64,000 nucleotides of DNA from an uncultured Acidobacteriaceae bacterium (GCA_963821165.1 CAWGCQ010000001.1:732427-796426), one strand, 5' to 3'. Positions 41,498 to 55,008 are shown, numbered from the stretch's first letter. The notes: generated from the sequence alone by a model not told the origin. Numbers and translations are program-made.

Positions 41498-43498
<2,001 letters not shown>

Positions 43499-43510
43499 GC
43501 CTCGTTCATT

Positions 43511-43601
43511 CAAGGGCCAACGGCCCGACCCATCACAGCCTGGGGCGCAGCCCCAGGGTAACCACACCCCAAATCCAAGGGCTGAAGGCTCGACATATAC
43601 T
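43511..43601 (+). repeat. ~85 bp REP-like composite repeat, copy 3
   Basis: Matches copies at 39218 and 41836. Confidence 0.85.
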
Positions 43602-43728
43602 GGGGGCAACGTCCCCACGCGCGCATACCCAGTCCCGAAAAACACGACAACGATCACCCACCCCACCAACCCCATCCATGCGATAACCTAATCCTCACCA
43701 CCACAGCAATCGGGCTCCCATCCCAAAA

Positions 43729-44615: not shown

Positions 44616-45023
44616 ATGTACCTGACCACCAACCAACCCATCGCCTTCATCCCCACCGTCGACGGTGCCGCCGCGCGCAGCTTCTACGAAACCGCCCTCG
44701 GCCTCGACTTCGTCTCCGATGACGACTTCGCCATCGTCTTTAGCATCGGACCGACCTTCCGCGACGGCTCCTCCCGCACCATGCTGCGCGTCACTCGCGT
44801 CCCGAAGCCGTTTACGCCCGCCCCCTTCACCATCTTTGCCTGGGAGGTCGACGACATCCACGCCACCATCGCCGACCTCAAAACCCGCGGCGTCGAATTC
44901 CTCCAATACGACTACTTCGAGCAGGACGAAGCCGGCGTCTGGACCGCCCCCGGCGGCGCCCAGGTAGCCTGGTTCCAGGACCCCGACGGCAACACCCTCT
45001 CCCTCGCCAAACACCCCTCCTAA
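44616..45023 (+). CDS. VOC/glyoxalase family protein
   Basis: ARSFYE..LGL, WEVDDI, RGVEF, AWFQDPDGN.L. Confidence 0.9.
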   Translation: MYLTTNQPIAFIPTVDGAAARSFYETALGLDFVSDDDFAIVFSIGPTFRDGSSRTMLRVTRVPKPFTPAPFTIFAWEVDDIHATIADLKTRGVEFLQYDYFEQDEAGVWTAPGGAQVAWFQDPDGNTLSLAKHPS

Positions 45024-45029
45024 CGCCCT

Positions 45030-45600
45030 CGCCGTTGCCCTTGCCTTTCTTTCTGTCATTCCCTCCGGGAATCTGCTTCTTCCTTTGCCTTTGCCTTTGC
45101 CTTTGCTTTTGCCTTTGCCTTTGCCTTTGCCTTTGCTGTTGCCCTTGCCGCTGCCTTTGCCTTTGCTGTTGCTGTTGCTGTTGCCCTTGCCGTTCTGGCT
45201 GTCATCCCGCAGGGATCTGCTTCTTCCTTTGCCTTTGCCCTTGCCTTTCTTTCTGTCATTCCCTCCGGGAATCTGCTTCTTCCCTTGCCCTTGCCGCTGC
45301 CTTTGCTTTTGCTTTTGCTTTTGCCTTTGCTCGTTGCTGTTGCCCTTGCCGTTCTGGCTGTCATCCCGCAGGGATCTGCTTCTTCCTTTGCCTGTGCCCT
45401 TGCCTTTCTTTCTGTCATTCCCTCCGGGAATCTGCTTCTTCCCTTGCCCTTGCCGCTGCCTTTGCTTTTGCTGTTGCTGTTGCCCTTGCCGTTCTGGCTG
45501 TCATCCCGCAGGGATCTGCTTCTTCCTTTGCCTTTGCCCTTGCTTTTCTTTCTGTCATTCCCCCCGGGAATCTGCTTCTTCTTTTTGCCTGTGCCTTTGC
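45030..45600 (+). repeat. Array of seven alternating REP-like hairpins embedded in a (TTGCYN)n microsatellite
   Basis: A = tgtcattccctccgggaatctgcttct at 45054, 45254, 45413, 45553; B = tgtcatcccgcagggatctgcttct at 45200, 45359, 45499. Confidence 0.92.
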
Positions 45601-45701
45601 CGCCGCGGCTGCACCTTCTACCGGATTAGCAGGGGGCTTCAGCCCCCTGAGACCGCAGCTCGCAGAATGGGCTTTAGCCCTGGCCGGCCCACCGCCCCCT
45701 C

Positions 45702-46244
45702 CGCAGGACAAAATAAATCCCCTCAAACCACCCCAAAAACAACCCAAAATCCACATGTCAAGCCCCCGACAACCCTCAATGACCCCAAAACCCGCGCCAC
45801 CACTGGCGATTTCTCTCTCACCAACTTGGCATAGTTACCCACCCAACTTGCTACACTTGAAGTAGAGCCCAATTTCAAACAAGCTGCACCGGCGAGTACC
45901 GGCTGCAGCTTTCACATTTAATCCCCTAACTCCAACGGAGAGAAGATCATACGCGTAACTCTTTTAGAATGAGCCGAGTGAAAGCAGCCTTCACCAAGTA
46001 ACTCGCACATTCCAAACAACTTCACTAACCAAAAGTGAAAGTAGGGGGAGGGGGGTATACCCGAGGCGCCCATCGCGGCAACTACCCCCGCCGGGGGGAT
46101 ACTTTGCCCCTTAACCCATCTGAATACAATCAGTTACGCCAAAAAATGCCCCCTGCTAAGGGGGATACTTTGCCACCTAACCCGTTTGACTGCACGACTT
46201 TAGCGCAAAAACAGCTAGTGCGAGGGGGGGAGGGGGGGTCCCTG
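45702..46244 (+). repeat. Structured non-coding element, left copy of a long inverted repeat
   Basis: Reverse complement of 54471-55008; I count 3 mismatches over 45783-45872. Confidence 0.95.
45849..45857 (+). promoter_or_regulatory. Candidate extended -10 promoter TGnTACACT inside the left element
   Basis: TGcTACACT here and TGaTACACT in the right copy; only the free position differs. Confidence 0.55.
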
Positions 46245-46284
46245 TCGGGCGTTCTTGGCCCGATGGGGTCAGAAGGGGGGTACC

Positions 46285-46803
46285 CTAGTCCCCGGTAACC
46301 GCCACCACCACCGGAAGCGTCTTCGGCGGATAGCAAACCGCGTTGTCGCAAGCCTGGTAATGCAGCGCGCCAGTCAGCGTCGACGAGCCCTTCGGCACCA
46401 CCAGCCGCACGCTCACCCGAAACTCACCCTGGTACACATCCAGCGTCTCGCCCGAACCCACCGGCAGCCGGTACGTCGACCCCTTCGGATACTGCTCATC
46501 CACAACCTTCGTCCCGCTCCCTGCATTCAACTGCAGCGCGGTCGGAATCAACAGCTCATCCTTGGGCCGATGCGAATTGATATGAAACCCATCCTGCACC
46601 CGGAACCGCAGCTCCACCACCTGCGGCTGACCAGCCTTCACCTCAACCGCATCCGAAAGCAACTCCACATGAGCCCTATGCACAACCGGCCCAGGATTCA
46701 ACTGAATCTCCTGCGCCCCAGCCCTCAACCCAAGCGCAGCCACCAACGCTGCAACACACCACCAACACCCTGGACCCTGGGCCCTGGACCCTGGGCCCTT
46801 CAT
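46285..46803 (-). CDS. DsbD N-terminal-like (DsbC-associated) domain protein
   Basis: Signal peptide; GFHINS, LIPT.L, YPKG, LHYQACDNAVCYPP. Confidence 0.85.
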   Translation of the reverse strand: MKGPGSRAQGPGCWWCVAALVAALGLRAGAQEIQLNPGPVVHRAHVELLSDAVEVKAGQPQVVELRFRVQDGFHINSHRPKDELLIPTALQLNAGSGTKVVDEQYPKGSTYRLPVGSGETLDVYQGEFRVSVRLVVPKGSSTLTGALHYQACDNAVCYPPKTLPVVVAVTGD

Positions 46804-47418
46804 AGCCCACCCGAACCGATCGCCTTCTGAATATCCGCCTCGAGCTCATTCTTCGAATGCGCGCCGATCGTCTGGTCCACAACCTTGCCGCTCTTGTCCA
46901 CGTAGAACGTCTCAGGAATGTAGTCGCTCAACTGATAGCTCTTCGACACAGCGTCATCCGGCATCAGGATCGGATACGTCACGCCAACGCGCTTGGACGC
47001 CTCCGCAACCTCCTTCACCGCCATGCCATCGTCCTGGTCCAGCCCCAGCACAACCAGTCCCTTGTCCTTGTACTTGTTCTGCAGATCCTGGAACCAAGGC
47101 ATCTCGAGCTTGCACGGTCCGCAATACGTAGCCCAGAAGTTCAGCACCACCGGATGTCCCTTGTAATCGGCCAGCGAAACCTTCTTGCCGCTCAGATCCA
47201 CCAGCGTGAACGACGGCGCAGCCTGACCAACCAGCTTCTTAGCCATCGGATCGTCAGCCGAATCCGCCGACGCAGACGAGGAATCAGCAGGCGTGAGCTT
47301 CTACCTGCTGCGCCTTCTGCATCACCATCTGCCGATGCCGCAGGTTATGCGTACCTGCCATCACCACCAGCGTCACACCCGCAATCAGCAACACGACAAT
47401 ACTCAAACGACGAACCAC
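46800..47418 (-). CDS. TlpA family thiol-disulfide reductase, frameshift near 47300
   Basis: APSFTL, VVLNFWATYCGPC..EMP; N-terminal TM anchor in another frame from GTG 47418. Confidence 0.9.
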
Positions 47419-47528
47419 GGCAAGATCCTTCGGCGCAGGCCGATCAGCGCCCGCGCTCCTCCTCTAGTCTATCGCTGATCAGCCGTCTCTGCTAGCATTC
47501 TCCCTAGCCAATATCTACGCCAGCCGCA

Positions 47529-48524
47529 ATGACCCAGCTTCCTCAAACGCAAGTCCCAAAACGCCCCGCTGACCTCATCCGGATTGAGGCCGAAGCGCTC
47601 GAGCAACTCGCCCAGCGCCTCGAAGGCCCTCAGGCTCAGGTGTTTGAGCAGGTTGCCGAGCTGCTCGCCGAAACCTCCCGAAGCGGCCATCGCGTCGTCC
47701 TCACCGGCATCGGCAAGAGCGGCCTCATCGCTCGCAAGATCGCCGCAACCCTGCTCTCCACAGGAACCGCGGCTCAGTTCCTGCATCCCACCGAAGCGCT
47801 CCACGGCGACCTCGGCCTGCTCAACCGCGGAGACGTCCTGCTCGCCCTCTCCTACTCCGGCGAGAGCGAGGAGCTGCTTCGCCTGCTGCCAGTTCTTCCG
47901 CGCCTCGGCGTAACGCTGGTCGCGCTCACCGGCTGCGAGGACTCACCTCTAGCCAAGGCCAGCGCACACGTACTCGACGTCAGCGTGGACCGCGAAGCCT
48001 GCAACCACCAGCTAGCGCCCACAGCCTCGACCACCGCAATGCTAGCCCTCGGCGATGCCCTCGCCATCGACGTCAGCCGACGCCTCAACTTCCAGCCCCA
48101 GGACTTCGCCGAGCTCCATCCCGGAGGTCAGCTCGGCAAGCGCCTGATCCCGGTCAGCCAGCTCATGCACACCGGCGACGCAATCCCAACGGTCGCCCCG
48201 ACCGCAACCCTCCCAGAGATCATCCACGAGATGTCCGCCAAGCGCCTCGGCCTCACGACGGTCCAGTCGCAGGGCAAGCTCCTAGGCATCCTCTCCGACG
48301 GCGACCTCCGACGGCTCTTCGCCCGCAGCGGCCCTGACGCCTTCCACCGAACCGCAGCCGAGATCCTCAACCCCAACCCACGCACGATCGCCTCCAACCC
48401 CTTCGCCGGCGACGCCCTCACCGTCATGGAACGGCACAAGATCACCGCCCTGATCGTCACCGAAGACGGCACCGGCGCGACAGCGGTCCAGGGCGTCCTG
48501 CATCTCCATGACGTGCTCGCGTAA
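47529..48524 (+). CDS. kdsD: Arabinose 5-phosphate isomerase (KpsF/GutQ family)
   Basis: GIGKSG, HPTEALHGDLG, SYSGES, APTAST, HPGG.LG, CBS pair. Confidence 0.94.
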   Translation: MTQLPQTQVPKRPADLIRIEAEALEQLAQRLEGPQAQVFEQVAELLAETSRSGHRVVLTGIGKSGLIARKIAATLLSTGTAAQFLHPTEALHGDLGLLNRGDVLLALSYSGESEELLRLLPVLPRLGVTLVALTGCEDSPLAKASAHVLDVSVDREACNHQLAPTASTTAMLALGDALAIDVSRRLNFQPQDFAELHPGGQLGKRLIPVSQLMHTGDAIPTVAPTATLPEIIHEMSAKRLGLTTVQSQGKLLGILSDGDLRRLFARSGPDAFHRTAAEILNPNPRTIASNPFAGDALTVMERHKITALIVTEDGTGATAVQGVLHLHDVLA

Positions 48525-48584
48525 GTTCTGTACTCAAAAGCGTTACCAACCTCTGATACGGCGCTCCGATACAATCGTACGAAT

Positions 48585-50437
48585 ATGCATCGTTGGTCGA
48601 AGCTCTTCATTCCCACTCTCCGCGAAGCCCCAACAGACGCGGAAGTCGCAAGCCACAAACTCCTTCTGCGTGCTGGATATATCCGTCAGCTCGGCGCTGG
48701 CATCTACAGCTATCTGCCGCTCGGTCAGCGCTCGCTGAACAAGATCATCGCCATCGTCCGCGAAGAGATGGACAAGATTGGCCAGGAGTTCTTTCTCCCT
48801 GCCCTGAATCCAGCAGAGATCTGGCAGGAGTCCGGCCGCTGGATCGGCATGGGCGACAACATGTTCCGCCTAAAGGATCGCAAAGGCGCTGAGCTCTGCC
48901 TGGCGATGACGCACGAAGAGGTGATCACCTCCATCGCACGCAACGAACTGCGCAGCTACAAGCAGCTCCCGCAGATCTGGTACCAAATCCAGACCAAGTT
49001 TCGCGACGAACCCAGGCCCAAAGCAGGGCTGATGCGCGTCCGCCAGTTCATGATGAAGGACTCTTATTCCTTCGACATCGATGCAGCAGGTCTCGACGAT
49101 AGCTATAACAAGCACGACGCTGCATATCGCGCGATCTTTACTCGCTGCGGCTTGCACTTCGTGGCTGTCGATGCCGACTCCGGCGCAATGGGCGGATCGC
49201 AGTCGCAGGAGTTCATGGTCTACACCGAAGCCGGCGAAGACCTTATCGCCAGCTCAGCATCCGGCTATGCGGCAAACCTGGAGAAGGCGACGAGCAAGCT
49301 CATGCCTGTCGAGGACCTGGCTCCGACAGGCGATGGCACGCCGGAACTTGTCTACACTCCGGGCAAAGCTTCCATCGCGGATGTCACCGAGTTCTTCGGC
49401 ATCGAAGCCTCGCAGGACATCAAGTGCGTCGCTTTCATGGGACTGACTGCGGACACCGCATCTGTCCCGCGTCCCATCGTCGCGTTCCTTCGCGGCGATC
49501 ACCAGGTCAATGAAACCAAGCTCGCCGCGATAACCGGCGTTACCGAGCTTCGTCCAATGGTACCGCTTGAACTCGAGATCCACATCGGAGGTCCCGCAGG
49601 ATTTCTCGGACCTGTAGGCATTGCTGAGGTCATGACGCAAGGCTCGCTGAACGGCCTGAAGTCGGGCAAGGAGCTTGCGAAACTCAAGGGCGTTCTGCGC
49701 GAGAATCCGAGCGAAGGGTTGAAGTCCATCGTCGTGATGGACCTTGGTCTGGAAGGTCGCACGAATCTCGTCGCCGGCGCGAACAAGCTGGACTATCACT
49801 ATCGCAACGTCACACCCGGCCGCGACTTCACGCCGACCGCTCATCGCCGACATTCGCAACATCAACGAAGGCGAGCTCGATCCCATCGGCGGTCAGCCGC
49901 TGCGCCTCGGCAAAGCCATGGAGATCGGCCACATCTTCAAGCTCGGCTACAAGTACAGCGAGAGCATGAATGCGCGCGTGCTGGATGCCAACGGCAAAGA
50001 GGTAATGCCGATTATGGGATGCTACGGAATCGGCGTTGAGCGCATTCTTACCGCTGCGATTGAATCCAGTGCAGCGAAGTTCGCCGCGGAATCGTCGACC
50101 GAGCAATACGCTTTACCGGCCTCGATCGCGCCCTTACGAAGTGATCGTGACCATCACGAACGTGCGTGAACCGGAGCTTCTCCAAGCCGGTGAAGATATC
50201 GCCAGGAAGCTGGAGGCTGCGGGAGTCGATGTATTGCTGGACGATCGCGATGAGCGAGCCGGAGTAAAGTTCAAGGACGCAGAACTGATCGGAGTTCCTT
50301 ATCGAATCAATATCGGCAAGAAGCTCGCGGACGGCCAAGTCGAACTGGTAGATCGTCTGACCCAGAAGACCGAAGATCTGGCCGTTGATTCCGTTACGCA
50401 ACACCTCGTAGCGCTGCTTGCTGCGTCCAAACAATAG
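48585..50437 (+). CDS. proS: Proline--tRNA ligase, frameshifts near 49840 and 50130
   Basis: [74 protein letters not shown]. Confidence 0.97.
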
Positions 50438-50455
50438 GATCTTCGATTCGATCGC

Positions 50456-52980
50456 ATGCCTGTAAAAGTCAAACTCGATAGCACCTCCCATCCCGTTCTC
50501 TGGCAGCTGTTGCGTGCAGCTCTGGTGCTGGCGATCGTCTTCTTCCTAATTGGCGGCTCTGTTTTCGGCTATTTCTACTTGCGCTACCGTGGCCTGGTTG
50601 CTGAACGGCTCGCAAAGGGACCACTCTTTGCTCCGGTCGCGCAGGTCTATGCAGCGCCTCAGGAAGTTCGTCCAGGACAGCAACTCTCGGCATCTGCCAT
50701 CGCTGCCGCTCTGCGGCGCGCGGGATACAACACAAACCCGGAGCTAGGCAGCTATGAGCTTCGCGGCGATTCGATCCTGATCAAACCAGGCCCGCAAAGC
50801 TACCTCGCGATGGACGGCGCCACCATCACGTCCGAGGACGGCCAGGTTCAGAGCATCACGGCAGAGAACGGTGCTGCTTTGTCCGCCTATAAGCTCGAGC
50901 CTCAGCTTATAACGGCGTTATCAGAGGACAAGAATCGAACCAAGCGGCGTCTGGTTACCTATAACCAGATTCCACCAAACATGGTTCAGGCCGTGCTGGC
51001 GATTGAGGATCGCCGCTTCTTTGAGCACTCAGGTATCAACTATGTGCGCACTGCGAAGTGCGCAGTGCAGGATATTCTCGCTCACCGAATGAACTGCGGA
51101 GGATCCACGCTCACCCAGCAACTGGCCCGCGGGTTCTTTCTATCGTCAGAGAAAACGTACTCGCGGAAGATTGCCGAGGTTGTGATCACGTACCAACTCG
51201 AGGCTCGCTTCTCCAAGCAGCAGATCTTCGAGATGTATGCCAACGAGATCAACCTTGGCCAACGCGGTTCGTTCGCGATCAATGGCTTTGGCGAAGCCGC
51301 GCAGGCATATTTCGGGAAAGACCTGCGCCAGCTGGACCTAGCCGAATGTGCCTTGCTCGCGGGGATGATCCAGCGGCCAAACTACTTCGCTCCGTATCGT
51401 CATCCTGACCGAGCCATGGAGCGACGCAACGTCGTGTTGGATTCGATGGTGGAGACGGGCGCCATCACGCAGGAGCAGGCTGATCGAGCAAAGGCTGAGC
51501 CGATTCGTTTAGCCCCTCCAGATGCCGATGCAAGCGAGGCACCCTATTTCGTCGACCTCGTTCACGATCAGATCTTGCAGCGACTCGGCGACTCGGATGT
51601 CACTCGCTCGGCCCTGCGGATCTACACATCGCTCGATCCCGAGCTTCAGCGCGCAGCTGCCTCCGCGATCGAGGCGGGCATGAAAAATGTCGATGAACTT
51701 GTGCGCCGTCGCTACTTTGCGCTCAACCACAAGAAGGGCGAGAAGTTCAGCGCGGACTACACGCCGGACGGCCACATTACGTATCCGCAGGTCGCGCTGG
51801 TGGCGCTCAACCCGCACACGGGCCAGATTCTGGCTTTGATTGGTGGGCGCAACTACGGCGACTCGCAGCTGGACCACGCTCTTGCTGAGCGACCGACTGG
51901 ATCCATCTTCAAACCCTTTGTGTTCGCCGCTGCCTACAACACGTCTCTCGACGGCACGAACCTCGGTTCGGGCGGTGTCTTCACTGCTCTGACCGGATCA
52001 ACGACGACCCACAGGATTTCGGTATCAACGGCCAGAGCTATACTCCCGGAAATTTTGTGAAAGGCGAGTATCCCGGCATGGTTACGGCAGCCGACGCGCT
52101 TGCCCACTCCCTCAACATTGCGACCATATCGCTTGCCCAGATGGTTGGCTATGACAATGTCGCGGCTCTTGCGCGCTCGGCCGGCATCGTTAACGCGCGC
52201 GGCACACCGTCGGTCGCGATTGGCACCTACAACGCAACACCGCTGGAGATGGCAGGCGCGTACACCATATTCGCCAACAACGGCGTGCATCTCAAACCCT
52301 GGGTGCTCGCGAGCGTTCGCAATCCGCAGGGCGACATCGTTGCTGATTTCGCACCAGAAGCGAAACAGGTGCTTGACCCGCGCGCTGCCTTCCTCACGCA
52401 ATCGCTGCTGGAAGACGTGATGGCCTACGGCACGGGATCGACCGTACGCGCGCATGGCTTTACCGCTCCTGCAGCCGGCAAGACGGGCACGGAGCACGAT
52501 TCGTGGTTCGCGGGATATTCCTCCAATCTTCTATGCGTGATCTGGGTCGGCAATGATGATTACACCGACCTCAAGATCCAGGGCGCAGATGCTGCCGCGC
52601 CGATCTGGGCCGAGTTCATGAATCGGGCGATTCGCATTCCTCAATACTCGGACATGAAACCGCTGGGCCCTGCTCCCAGCGGCGTGGAGGTGCTGCGCAT
52701 CGATCGAACGACGAACCTGATCGCAGACGATTCCTGTCCGAACAACGCCTTCACAGCGGCCTTCCTGGTCGGAGCCGCACCTCAGGGCACTTGTTCCCAC
52801 ATGGGGGATGATTCTCAATCGCTGGGCAGCCGCATCTTCGGTTTCTTCACTGGGAAATCGGCGACTCCCGCTGCGCCTCCAGGCGATACGCAGCCGGCTG
52901 ATGCCACCAAGCACCGAAATCTGCTGCAAAAGATATTTGGCACTGGCAAGGATAAGCCAAAGGATCAACCACCGCAGTAG
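50456..52980 (+). CDS. Class A penicillin-binding protein (PBP1B-like), frameshift near 52000
   Basis: EDRRFFEH, GSTLTQQL, RKIAE; SIFK, SLN and KTGT transpeptidase motifs. Confidence 0.94.
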
Positions 52981-53028
52981 CTGCGTTGACCTGTTTCGCT
53001 GAATCGAGTGGTCGGATGGGGCTCGTTC

Positions 53029-54366
53029 TCAAGCTAGCTGGATCGGTTGATGCTGCTGCGCGCGCGCGCGGCCCAACGTGTGGTCTAAATTGCCTAGCCA
53101 ATATCGCAACAGGAAATAGCCAATTGCCCAGATGATCAGATTCACCACGAACTGCGTTATCCAAAACCATTTGTATGCCATCGAAAACATCAGCATATGC
53201 ATTCCGAAAAATGCCAGGCCCGCGCACTCACGGCCCAGTGTTGCTGGCTTGTACGGAAATTTATCGAAGAGCAGGGGCAGCGCCACGAAGAAGATAGGCC
53301 ACGCGTATCCGATGAGGCGCGCAAACCAGGTTCCCAGCACGGGCGCCAATATGAGAGATGCAACCCCGTAAAGCAGAGCGAAGCGCAAGAGGACACTCGG
53401 TGAGTTGAGCTTTCTGCCTCGCCACCAAAGGAAGGCCAGCAGTAGCGGCAAGAGGCCAAATTCACTCAATACGGCTTCAGATATAAGCACCCATCCCGTG
53501 ACCGAAAATCCGCATATCCCAATCGCATGCACTTGTCCAAGGTGAAGCTGCCATGACCACCGAGGAACTGCGCAGAATTGAGTGTTCACGTTGCTCCACG
53601 GAACCAATCCGAAGACGTTGTACATAAAATTCCAAGGCACTTTCGCGAGCATATAGATTGACTCTGGAAGGTTCTCCGCGTTGGGCTGCGCGCGCATTGC
53701 AAGATGTTTCACCACGACGCTCCCTGCGAGCGTTGAGACAACCGCAACAATTCTGTCCGTCCATCTCAACCTCTTCCAGGCTGCGATCAAGAAGCAGACG
53801 AGGGTCAGCGACGTCGACTCTCGAGAGAGCATCAGAGGAAACATCATCACGGCCGCTGCCAGCATGTGTTCGTCGTCCAGCAAGAGAAGCAATACGGCTA
53901 AAAGCGCTGAGTACCAGAGGTCGGGCAAGACGAGGTCCTGCAACAGAAAGGGCCAGAACGGCGCAAACGCCATGGCAAACAAAAACCATCTGGGAGCTGT
54001 TGTTTTGAGTGCGAGATAGTAGATTGCGACCAGCATAAAAACGATGGAGGCAGTGCCTTCGATCAAGAATCCGCGCTCAACGGTGGAGTGGAACAGATGC
54101 ATCCATCCAGTCACCATGAGAGCGCCAAGCTGGCGGGACGCGAAGGGTTGCATCACTTGGCTATAGTCGCCTGTGGCCATTGCAATATAGAACCGCGCGT
54201 CACCATTGATAAAGACTGACTCGGAATGCCCAACGCTATACATGGCGTAGAGCAAGCAGCAGATGATTGCTGCGAGCGCTACGGCGACGCGCATGACTGG
54301 AGGCATTCGTCGTATGGGCGCGTTGAACGCGCGAACTATCGCAAGAGCTTTAGCAGACAAACGCAA
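53029..54366 (-). CDS. Hypothetical polytopic membrane protein, possibly a GT-C fold glycosyltransferase
   Basis: About 10 TM helices; first-loop GDARFY and later LSRES; AT-richer than its neighbours. Confidence 0.6.
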   Translation of the reverse strand: MRLSAKALAIVRAFNAPIRRMPPVMRVAVALAAIICCLLYAMYSVGHSESVFINGDARFYIAMATGDYSQVMQPFASRQLGALMVTGWMHLFHSTVERGFLIEGTASIVFMLVAIYYLALKTTAPRWFLFAMAFAPFWPFLLQDLVLPDLWYSALLAVLLLLLDDEHMLAAAVMMFPLMLSRESTSLTLVCFLIAAWKRLRWTDRIVAVVSTLAGSVVVKHLAMRAQPNAENLPESIYMLAKVPWNFMYNVFGLVPWSNVNTQFCAVPRWSWQLHLGQVHAIGICGFSVTGWVLISEAVLSEFGLLPLLLAFLWWRGRKLNSPSVLLRFALLYGVASLILAPVLGTWFARLIGYAWPIFFVALPLLFDKFPYKPATLGRECAGLAFFGMHMLMFSMAYKWFWITQFVVNLIIWAIGYFLLRYWLGNLDHTLGRARAQQHQPIQLA

Positions 54367-54470
54367 TCATCTCCTTGAATGCTCCAGCCTTTAGCGCATT
54401 CCTCCACCCTTATACATGGAGCGGATTTCGAACTGCTGTTCGACGTTCGAAGCCTGCGTTGAGACGGGAC

Positions 54471-55008
54471 CAGGGTACCCCCCTCCCCCCTCCACCTGGC
54501 TGTTTTTGCGCTAAAGTCGTGCAATCAGACTAGTTAGGTGGCAAAGTATCCCCTTCTCAGGGGCGACTTCTTGGCGTAACTGATTGTATTCAGGCGGGTT
54601 AAGGGGCAAAGTATCCCCCCGGCGGTGGTGGTTGTCGCGATGGGCGCCTCGCGTATGCCCCCCCTCCCCCTACTTTCACCTTTGGTTAGTGAAGTCGTTT
54701 GGAATGTGCGGGTTCGTTGGTGAAAGCTGCTTTCACTCGGCTCATTCTAAACGAGTTACGGCTATGATCTTCTCTCCGTTGGAGTTAGGGTTTAAATGTG
54801 AAAGCTGCAGCCGGTAACTCGCCGGTGCAGCTTGTTTGCATTTGGGCTCTACTTCAAGTGTATCAAGTTGGGTAGGTAACTATGCCAAGTTGGTGAGAGA
54901 GAAATCGCCAGTGGCGGCGCGGGTTTTGGGGCGTTCGCGGGTGGGTGGGGGCTTGACATGCGAAATCCGGGCTGTTTTCGAAGCTGGTTCCAGAATTTAT
55001 TTTTCTGC
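54471..55008 (-). repeat. Structured non-coding element, right copy of the long inverted repeat
   Basis: Reverse complement of 45702-46244. Confidence 0.95.

Follow-up and report, generated by a model that had tools for sequence, protein, structure and literature searches.

A dispersed family of candidate non-coding transcription units ending in paired G runs in Granulicella and other Acidobacteriaceae

The stretch of DNA analysed here (the window) comprises 64,000 nt from an uncultured Acidobacteriaceae bacterium (GCA_963821165.1; genome G000, 4.68 Mb in 5 contigs) and corresponds to C1:732427-796426. The genome has a completeness score of only 65%. Two inverted copies of a composite element lie in the window, with arms that are 87-93% complementary over four blocks and about 8.2 kb of DNA between them (Table 1). 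Genes of the intervening segment encode DsbD_N, AhpC/redoxin, SIS+CBS, class II tRNA-synthetase (proS-like) and transglycosylase/transpeptidase (PBP1-like) domains. No tRNA or tmRNA gene was found in the window. Four tandem units of 140-200 nt with TGCCTT-type hexamer runs and a small hairpin are located just 5' of the left copy (44974-45629), and a similar array is present 5' of an orthologous family copy in genome G012. The gltX-like (41964-43686) and PBP1-like (50456-52980) genes are each split into two overlapping frames, which are probably homopolymer errors of the long-read assembly and not real pseudogenes.

Table 1. Features of the element pair and its surroundings (window coordinates, nt)
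Feature	Position	Strand	Basis or remark
Left copy of composite element	45710..46285	+	similarity limits against right copy and other family members
Module A, promoter region	45710-45872	+	
Upstream box, about 100 nt 5' of the -10	45756..45767	+	90-100% conserved columns, 38 aligned copies
-35-like box (TGGCRTA)	45827..45833	+	near-invariant in 38 copies
Extended -10, TGn + TACACT	45849..45857 (hexamer 45852-45857)	+	
Predicted start, few bases 3' of the -10	near 45863-45866	+	
Module B, body variant, ending exactly at the G tract	45873..46056	+	
Perfect GC stem (5' hairpin), then T-rich stretch	45881..45911	+	kept in 24 B-type copies
C-rich box with first TAACYC; predicted pairing partner of G5AG6	45923..45933	+	MFE and consensus folds
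TAACYC starts	45927, 45956, 45999, 46112, 46178	+	direct reading of sequence
G5AG6 tract, 3' end of module B	46044..46055	+	11/11 B-type copies end G4-8 A G5-7
Module C, two 66-nt units of the general terminal-unit type	46094..46223	+	repeat family D4
G7AG7, terminal tract of the element	46224..46238	+	direct reading
REP-like D unit, hairpin at 46245-46263	about 46234-46285 (also bounded 46239..46285)	+	
Low-skew segment between copies, 8.2 kb	46286..54469	.	skew -0.2 falling to 0
Membrane-protein gene, about 100 nt after right copy	53029-54366	-	
Right, inverted copy	54470..54978	-	-10 at 54857-54862
Tracts of right copy	G5AG7 54658-54670; G6AG6 54478-54490	-	

Judged from its sequence, the stretch is one copy of a dispersed family of chromosomal elements, and a composite one, built from modules A, B, C and D. 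All motifs listed in the initial annotation, from the extended -10 and the GC stem to the TAACYC starts, the direct repeat and the two G tracts, were recovered in the left copy and again in its inverted partner, including the altered run lengths G5AG7 and G6AG6 of the latter; they occur far beyond chance. The direct repeat of module C (46094-46145 and 46160-46211, family D4) has 73% identity; units of its type stand ahead of the tract in most family members. The REP-like D unit also forms tandem arrays elsewhere in the genome (C1:678813-678951, C3:1485084-1485248 and C3:2128326-2128428). D-type units are 41-45 nt long, contain a hairpin and G runs, and are often found directly 3' of the terminal tract, which may be a preferred junction for them, as if it were the first G run of such a unit.

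A BLAST search of the element against its own genome gave 60 matches, re-analysis of which placed module A at about 39 loci; an nhmmer search with a module-A profile returned 47 copies. Module B was found at about 11 loci here, with further copies in relatives, and module C-type terminal units at about 15. The family is modular, with A, B, C and D in differing combinations at dispersed, intergenic positions. The element had been tied in the initial annotation to the skew switch of the window; it belongs instead to a dispersed family of about 47 members, and the unit is therefore neither an origin-specific device nor a one-off replication-origin device. Within the same genus, some of the genomes have multiple copies. 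In GTDB genomes a pattern scan gave at least 110 loci, and the 80 listed are almost all from Granulicella or unclassified Acidobacteriaceae, among them chromosome-level MAGs and the isolate Granulicella sp. L46. Across five genera, 15 of the 28 Acidobacteriaceae genomes sampled carry several copies of the terminal tract motif; for most other families of the class its count does not rise above that of the controls. The same element plan occurs in a second genus, g13 (complete genomes G215 and G141). The weak-skew relatives G018 and G003 are without BLAST-detectable copies; related genomes are not independent samples.

Conservation across 38 aligned copies is block-wise, with 90-100% identity within motifs and 30-60% between them. 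The blocks follow one another as upstream box, A/C-rich box, CAYTGSCGATTT-type box, -35-like box and -10, with TAG just after it. The core of the upstream box occurs 20 times in the genome as an exact match, and 19 of these occurrences lie within family members. The -10 reads TAnnnT in 41 of 42 copies, with T1, A2 and T6 fixed and positions 3-5 variable (TACAAT 19, TACACT 11, TAAAAT 4, TAAACT 4, and others); fixed positions 1, 2 and 6 combined with free positions 3-5 are the pattern of a working -10. The distance between the -35-like box and the -10 is fixed at 22 nt (21 nt in the window copy), and is held in two genera although the bases between shift. A simple sigma-70 consensus scan called no promoter at the element because of this spacer of about 20-21 nt, the usual -35 spacing tested being 16-18 nt. 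A sigma-54 reading of the -35-like box, made by eye, was rejected on two grounds: the GG-to-GC spacing is unfit, and the intervening bases shift by 3 nt between the genera while the distance to the -10 stays constant. Some copies have co-oriented genes or a small ORF inside or right after them, consistent with real outward transcription.

A GnAGn tract follows the -10 at 163-557 nt (median 204) in 37 of 42 full copies. By a separate count 34 of 38 copies have the terminal tract; it is invariably interrupted by one A, and TACCC usually comes next. Both strands of the 4.68 Mb genome together contain only 159 G4+AG4+ tracts. Nearly every long one on the C-rich strand is a family end, and short G4AG4 tracts at other places represent the ordinary background of the G-rich strand. 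The two G runs differ in length among copies (5-9 and 5-8), and because they vary from copy to copy their exact lengths carry no weight. Promoter and non-template-strand tract, the pair of signals on which the initial annotation had built its reading, are the conserved ends of the element in the approximately 47 copies here, in other Granulicella and in the second genus; loss of the -10 or of the tracts among homologues, which it had named as evidence to the contrary, was not observed.

Between these ends the body consists of TAAC-started units of 30-40 nt, repeated 3-6 times and carrying two short conserved motifs. The proposal that the TAACYC boxes are IHF-like nucleoid-protein sites did not hold: the boxes are the starts of the repeated body units, the first of them being predicted to pair with the G tract, no match to WATCAANNNNTTR (up to 1 mismatch) occurs in either copy, and its window-wide count equals chance. 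The KOPS octamer GGGNAGGG does lie within the tract, and like KOPS it is polar on the chromosome. Unlike KOPS, the long tracts are embedded in a unit of 330-560 bp and stand in the non-permissive orientation on the C-rich strand, which is lagging-sense by the usual convention; to our knowledge KOPS recognition is not established in Acidobacteria.

Compared with shuffled sequences, the fold of module B has z = -3.1. The consensus fold of 24 B-type copies keeps the 5' hairpin, a GAAUG/CAUUC helix and a closing helix, the last of which is predicted to join the C-rich box at the first TAACYC to the G tract. Variable positions of the C-rich box are exclusively C<->T (U), compatible with G-C/G-U pairing. 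Changes on both sides were found in only three of the 23 predicted pairs, so that covariation lends modest support to RNA pairing; in the 5' hairpin one pair has changed on both sides and several on one side across the 24 copies, and a clearly stable 5' hairpin is limited to about one quarter of the Granulicella copies. The primary sequence is conserved more than the structure, which could equally fit recognition by protein or at the DNA level. Most copies of genus g13 have a canonical terminator hairpin with a T run at the position of the 5' hairpin, and at the g13 loci L179-L198 (G215, G141) this terminator is placed about 25-60 nt 3' of the promoter, before units and tract. If the predicted terminator works, the g13 units and tract would seldom be transcribed.

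No Rfam covariance model matched either copy at E <= 1, and the sole Rfam matches in 40-60 kb are two of Acido-Lenti-1, both outside the element. A coding function was rejected, as the 10-codon ORF of module B has no start or no stop in several copies. The element is not the leader of one gene family: genes adjoining the copies are unrelated and no common downstream family was found, the translations after B-type copies being, as we take them, ferritin-like, multi-pass membrane transporter-like and aldo-keto-reductase-like, with one left without assignment. A CsrA-sponge was also discarded, as the GGA in the short hairpin loop of some units is AGA in others. Some copies enclose cargo. One (C3:1306016-1306500) has an ORF of about 65 codons with a ribosome-binding site between promoter and terminal units, and another (C1:539808-542430) has about 2.5 kb after C1:539901, including an aldo-keto-reductase-like gene.

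The reading tentatively preferred here is a fixed, conserved family of small predicted non-coding transcription units in Granulicella and other Acidobacteriaceae; the family is previously undescribed. Each unit would be self-contained, with upstream box, -35-like box, TAnnnT -10, 5' hairpin, a body of TAAC units and GnAGn followed by TACCC. RNA polymerase would start a few bases 3' of the -10 and produce an RNA of about 200-550 nt, of which the G tract would form the 3' boundary, either by pairing back on the C-rich TAACYC box and closing the RNA, or by ending transcription through an R-loop or a hybrid quadruplex formed with the non-template strand. Against this reading stand the approximately 47 copies with differing bodies, unusual for an sRNA gene; the thin covariation, the few stable 5' hairpins and a spacer long for sigma-70; and the strand polarity and V-switch enrichment described below, for which an ordinary sRNA family gives no reason. 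If correct, it would add to a major soil phylum an undescribed, cross-genus family of non-coding transcription units with a defined promoter, an unusual G-run-A-G-run end and nearly all copies oriented one way relative to strand composition. The family would offer a handle on the transcription signals and small RNAs of Acidobacteria, a field in which almost nothing is known.

The history of the locus was followed in related genomes. G012 has the same inverted pair, with 95% and 90% identity, and flank and SNP patterns (L011, L018, G012 C19) place the inner 8.2 kb in inverted order between G000 and G012, the crossover lying inside module C near window 46150-46210 according to the SNP patterns. 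The window pair is best read as an old inverted duplication of one unit, and recombination between its arms would have flipped the intervening 8.2 kb at least once. Copies occupy orthologous places in G012 and G001. A second locus has flanks of 96% identity and an orthologous 5' half of module A, followed by a different variant of core promoter and body; such a body swap at an orthologous locus implies exchange among copies. The 5' edge of the element at a third locus is precisely where synteny with G012 breaks off. All three loci examined have G012 counterparts, and the inverted pair aside, the copies compared are at most about 86% identical to the window element over any module. By these comparisons the family is fixed in the chromosome, seemingly without recent mobility.

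A selfish interspersed repeat of REP/BIME-, BOX- or MITE-like type, non-autonomous, promoter-carrying and spreading as single-stranded DNA in one orientation relative to the fork, is a rather unlikely alternative. Pneumococcal BOX elements (with A-B-C modules), Neisseria Correia elements and REP/BIME sequences include members that carry promoters or protein sites; like them, the present family is intergenic and modular, numbers tens of copies, and is mixed with REP-like units, which abut the element, and with Acido-Lenti-1-like repeats. The synteny break at one 5' edge and a strand polarity common to all repeat families also speak for this view, as do eight Y1 transposase (RAYT/IS200-type) genes in the genome, two of them within about 300 bp of copies. 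Single-strand transposition of IS200/IS605 is biased in orientation relative to replication forks (PMC5027513), and REPs are linked to Y1 transposases (PMC3333891). However, Y1 genes are equally common in relatives without detectable copies, and the repeats around one of them (C3:2664650-2664991) are Acido-Lenti-1-like and not the promoter-G-tract element. The longest flank repeat averages 5.75 nt versus 5.64 nt in mismatched controls, which leaves no target-site duplication, and terminal inverted repeats are absent beyond a C run facing a G run. A known non-coding RNA or a MITE with target-site duplications, two further outcomes considered in the initial annotation, found no match in Rfam or in the flanks. 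The element differs from a REP, a palindromic unit of 20-40 nt flanking a Y1 gene, in measuring 330-560 bp with a promoter, and from the whole BOX/Correia/REP-BIME group in its cross-genus promoter and tract and its near-total skew polarity. Also at odds with a selfish repeat are the block-wise conservation with a functional-looking -10 pattern, the divergence of the compared copies noted above, the retention of loci across species and of the plan across genera, and the lack of any match to the element in plasmid and phage collections.

In this genome, a skew mosaic, about 58 domains with GC skew of ±0.3-0.4 alternate with flat DNA; skewed DNA has 62.5% GC and flat DNA 57.7%. Mosaics of this kind are also seen in G015, G020, G215 and G141, and in G018 and G003 the skew is weak and ordinary. 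Counted by strand relative to skew, long ORFs number 337 and 307, a distribution without preference, and gene-strand bias was accordingly dropped as a guide to fork direction; the G-rich strand carries rplB, and flat DNA contains rpoB and the rRNA operon. The transcript-sense strand of the copies is the C-rich strand in a ratio of 40:1 (p = 4e-11), and the same polarity holds for 85 of 92 other Granulicella loci and for 20 of 20 in g13. Other repeat families are equally polar and avoid flat DNA (Acido-Lenti-1-like 39:0, CCCTRNN 95:7, TGCCTT 11:0). Because all repeat families tested behave in this way, polarity is a general property of repeats in skewed DNA, and its near-completeness points to a link with replication direction or with a one-strand origin of the repeats.

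Mean oriented skew is -0.28 just 5' of the copies and fades with distance to about -0.08 by 12-16 kb 3'. It collapses within 0-4 kb 3' of the element at about 15 of 37 copies; most copies (about three quarters) lie inside skew domains without a step. Abrupt domain ends accompany 28% of copies versus 16% of random positions in a matched control (p = 0.056), and at domain edges the skewed DNA is upstream for 10 copies and downstream for one, against a base rate of 64:36. The genome has 14 sharp V-type (origin-like) and seven Lambda-type (terminus-like) sign switches; copies lie within 10 kb of eight of the former and none of the latter (hypergeometric p ~ 0.015), and three V apexes are bracketed by convergent copy pairs like that of the window. 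Recombination between copies as the cause of the mosaic is ruled out by logic: a single V is preserved on inversion because polar inverted copies sit in DNA of opposite sign. In G000 a V apex has dnaA and, 6.6 kb away from it, a B-type copy, with the same arrangement in G012, and in G015 a copy at a V apex is about 10 kb from dnaA (about 7-12 kb over the three genomes). The weak-skew genome G018 has a normal V at dnaA, and in g13 dnaA is at a Lambda-type switch. A scan with the E. coli DnaA-box consensus (up to 1 mismatch) found no cluster of at least 4 per 600 bp in the whole genome and only two single boxes at 45-56 kb; made with this consensus, the scan is uninformative about oriC. Explaining why repeats are confined to skewed domains and polar in them, with the element family enriched at origin-like edges, would bear on how the chromosomes of these slow-growing bacteria are replicated, repaired or rearranged.

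The G-rich strand is conventionally taken as the leading strand, which is backed here only by the V at dnaA in G018, G000, G012 and G015. If this holds, the forks upstream of the element travel away from it, and its transcription runs head-on against them. This bears on a replication-linked device, an explanation that we consider doubtful, in which transcription from the promoter into GnAGn would form an R-loop or hybrid quadruplex that primes DNA synthesis or seeds fork assembly. Promoter and CSB II-like tract, on which the initial annotation had based a primer RNA, are real and conserved; its origin-specific, leading-strand role is not upheld. A primer of the ColE1 or CSB II type would be extended downstream, where the transcript-sense strand should be G-rich, and the opposite was seen, with skewed DNA on the upstream side of the promoter and C in excess on its transcript-sense strand. 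In the observed orientation the device would instead prime the G-rich lagging-strand template, in the manner of a mitochondrial OL or a plasmid single-strand origin, and the fit to priming on that strand is by inference only.

The comparison with known primers is of use in weighing this device. ColE1 RNA II is transcribed from a promoter and needs its G run to form a persistent hybrid; unlike it, the element has 47 chromosomal copies, no plasmid match and a skew orientation opposite to that of a leading-strand primer. Mitochondrial OL and plasmid or phage sso are orientation-dependent origins at which RNA polymerase makes a short primer on exposed single-stranded DNA. The element resembles them in that its direction of transcription is that of synthesis on the G-rich strand and in the low skew 3' of about one third of copies; it differs in keeping a normal duplex promoter pattern, where OL and sso are folded single-stranded DNA, and in a chromosomal context without precedent. 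The human mtDNA light-strand promoter with CSB II (G5-6AG7-8) shares with it a promoter and, one to a few hundred nt 3' of it on the non-template strand, a pair of long G runs with one A between them, as well as extreme surrounding strand asymmetry; the differences are the approximately 47 copies per genome, the sigma-70-type -10 and a flanking skew of opposite sign, upstream and not downstream. Transcription stops at a two-G-run motif of CSB II type, which forms an RNA:DNA hybrid quadruplex (PMC3488243, PMC4176368). With a promoter ahead of two non-template G runs, 37 of 42 copies have the minimal motif for such a quadruplex and for the CSB II primer site (PMC3488243, PMC4176368, PMC3664831).

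The polarity, the V-type switches near copies, the one-sided domain edges, the upstream skew and the copies near dnaA in three genomes also favour the R-loop device. Against it count the majority of copies in domains without a skew step, the slight enrichment at domain ends, a polarity shared with other repeat families, the skewed domain upstream of the promoter, the lack of a DnaA-box cluster at the window apex or genome-wide, and the situation in g13, where a terminator stands between promoter and tract and dnaA is at a Lambda-type switch. Its furthest extension, that the copies are transcription-driven R-loop or hybrid-quadruplex sites starting DNA synthesis or fork assembly, so that the chromosome is partly copied from many RNA-primed sites, is very unlikely; we know of no precedent for many origins on one bacterial chromosome. 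If true, the sites would be akin to lagging-strand or DnaA-independent (stable-DNA-replication) origins, V switches would mark the places of firing, and a mitochondrion-like skew independent of gene orientation would be explained.

Also improbable is a protein-binding array in duplex DNA of the iteron, centromere or nucleoid-site type, in which the TAAC...ACTTTRC units and GnAGn-TACCC would be the sites and the promoter would be regulated by, or load, the same factor: the 3-6 repeats at a pitch of 30-40 nt with two short motifs, the near-exclusive upstream box, the strictly kept single A and TACCC and the conservation of sequence over structure are in its favour, but unit spacing is irregular, the IHF consensus, a candidate binding protein and a conserved neighbour gene are all lacking, and RNA pairing better accounts for a variation opposite the G tract that is confined to C and T.

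Two further observations concern neighbouring repeats. The sole copy of reversed polarity (C1:678654-678951) adjoins a tandem D-type array of the usual polarity, which suggests a local inversion of that copy alone. The two Acido-Lenti-1 matches of the window are at 43513-43557 and 41838-41882 (minus strand). Repeats like Acido-Lenti-1 form tandem arrays and flank the RAYT-like Y1 gene at C3:2664400-2665460, and one half-motif is oriented 39:0 relative to skew; the Acido-Lenti-1 motif of this genome looks like a REP family rather than, or besides, an sRNA.
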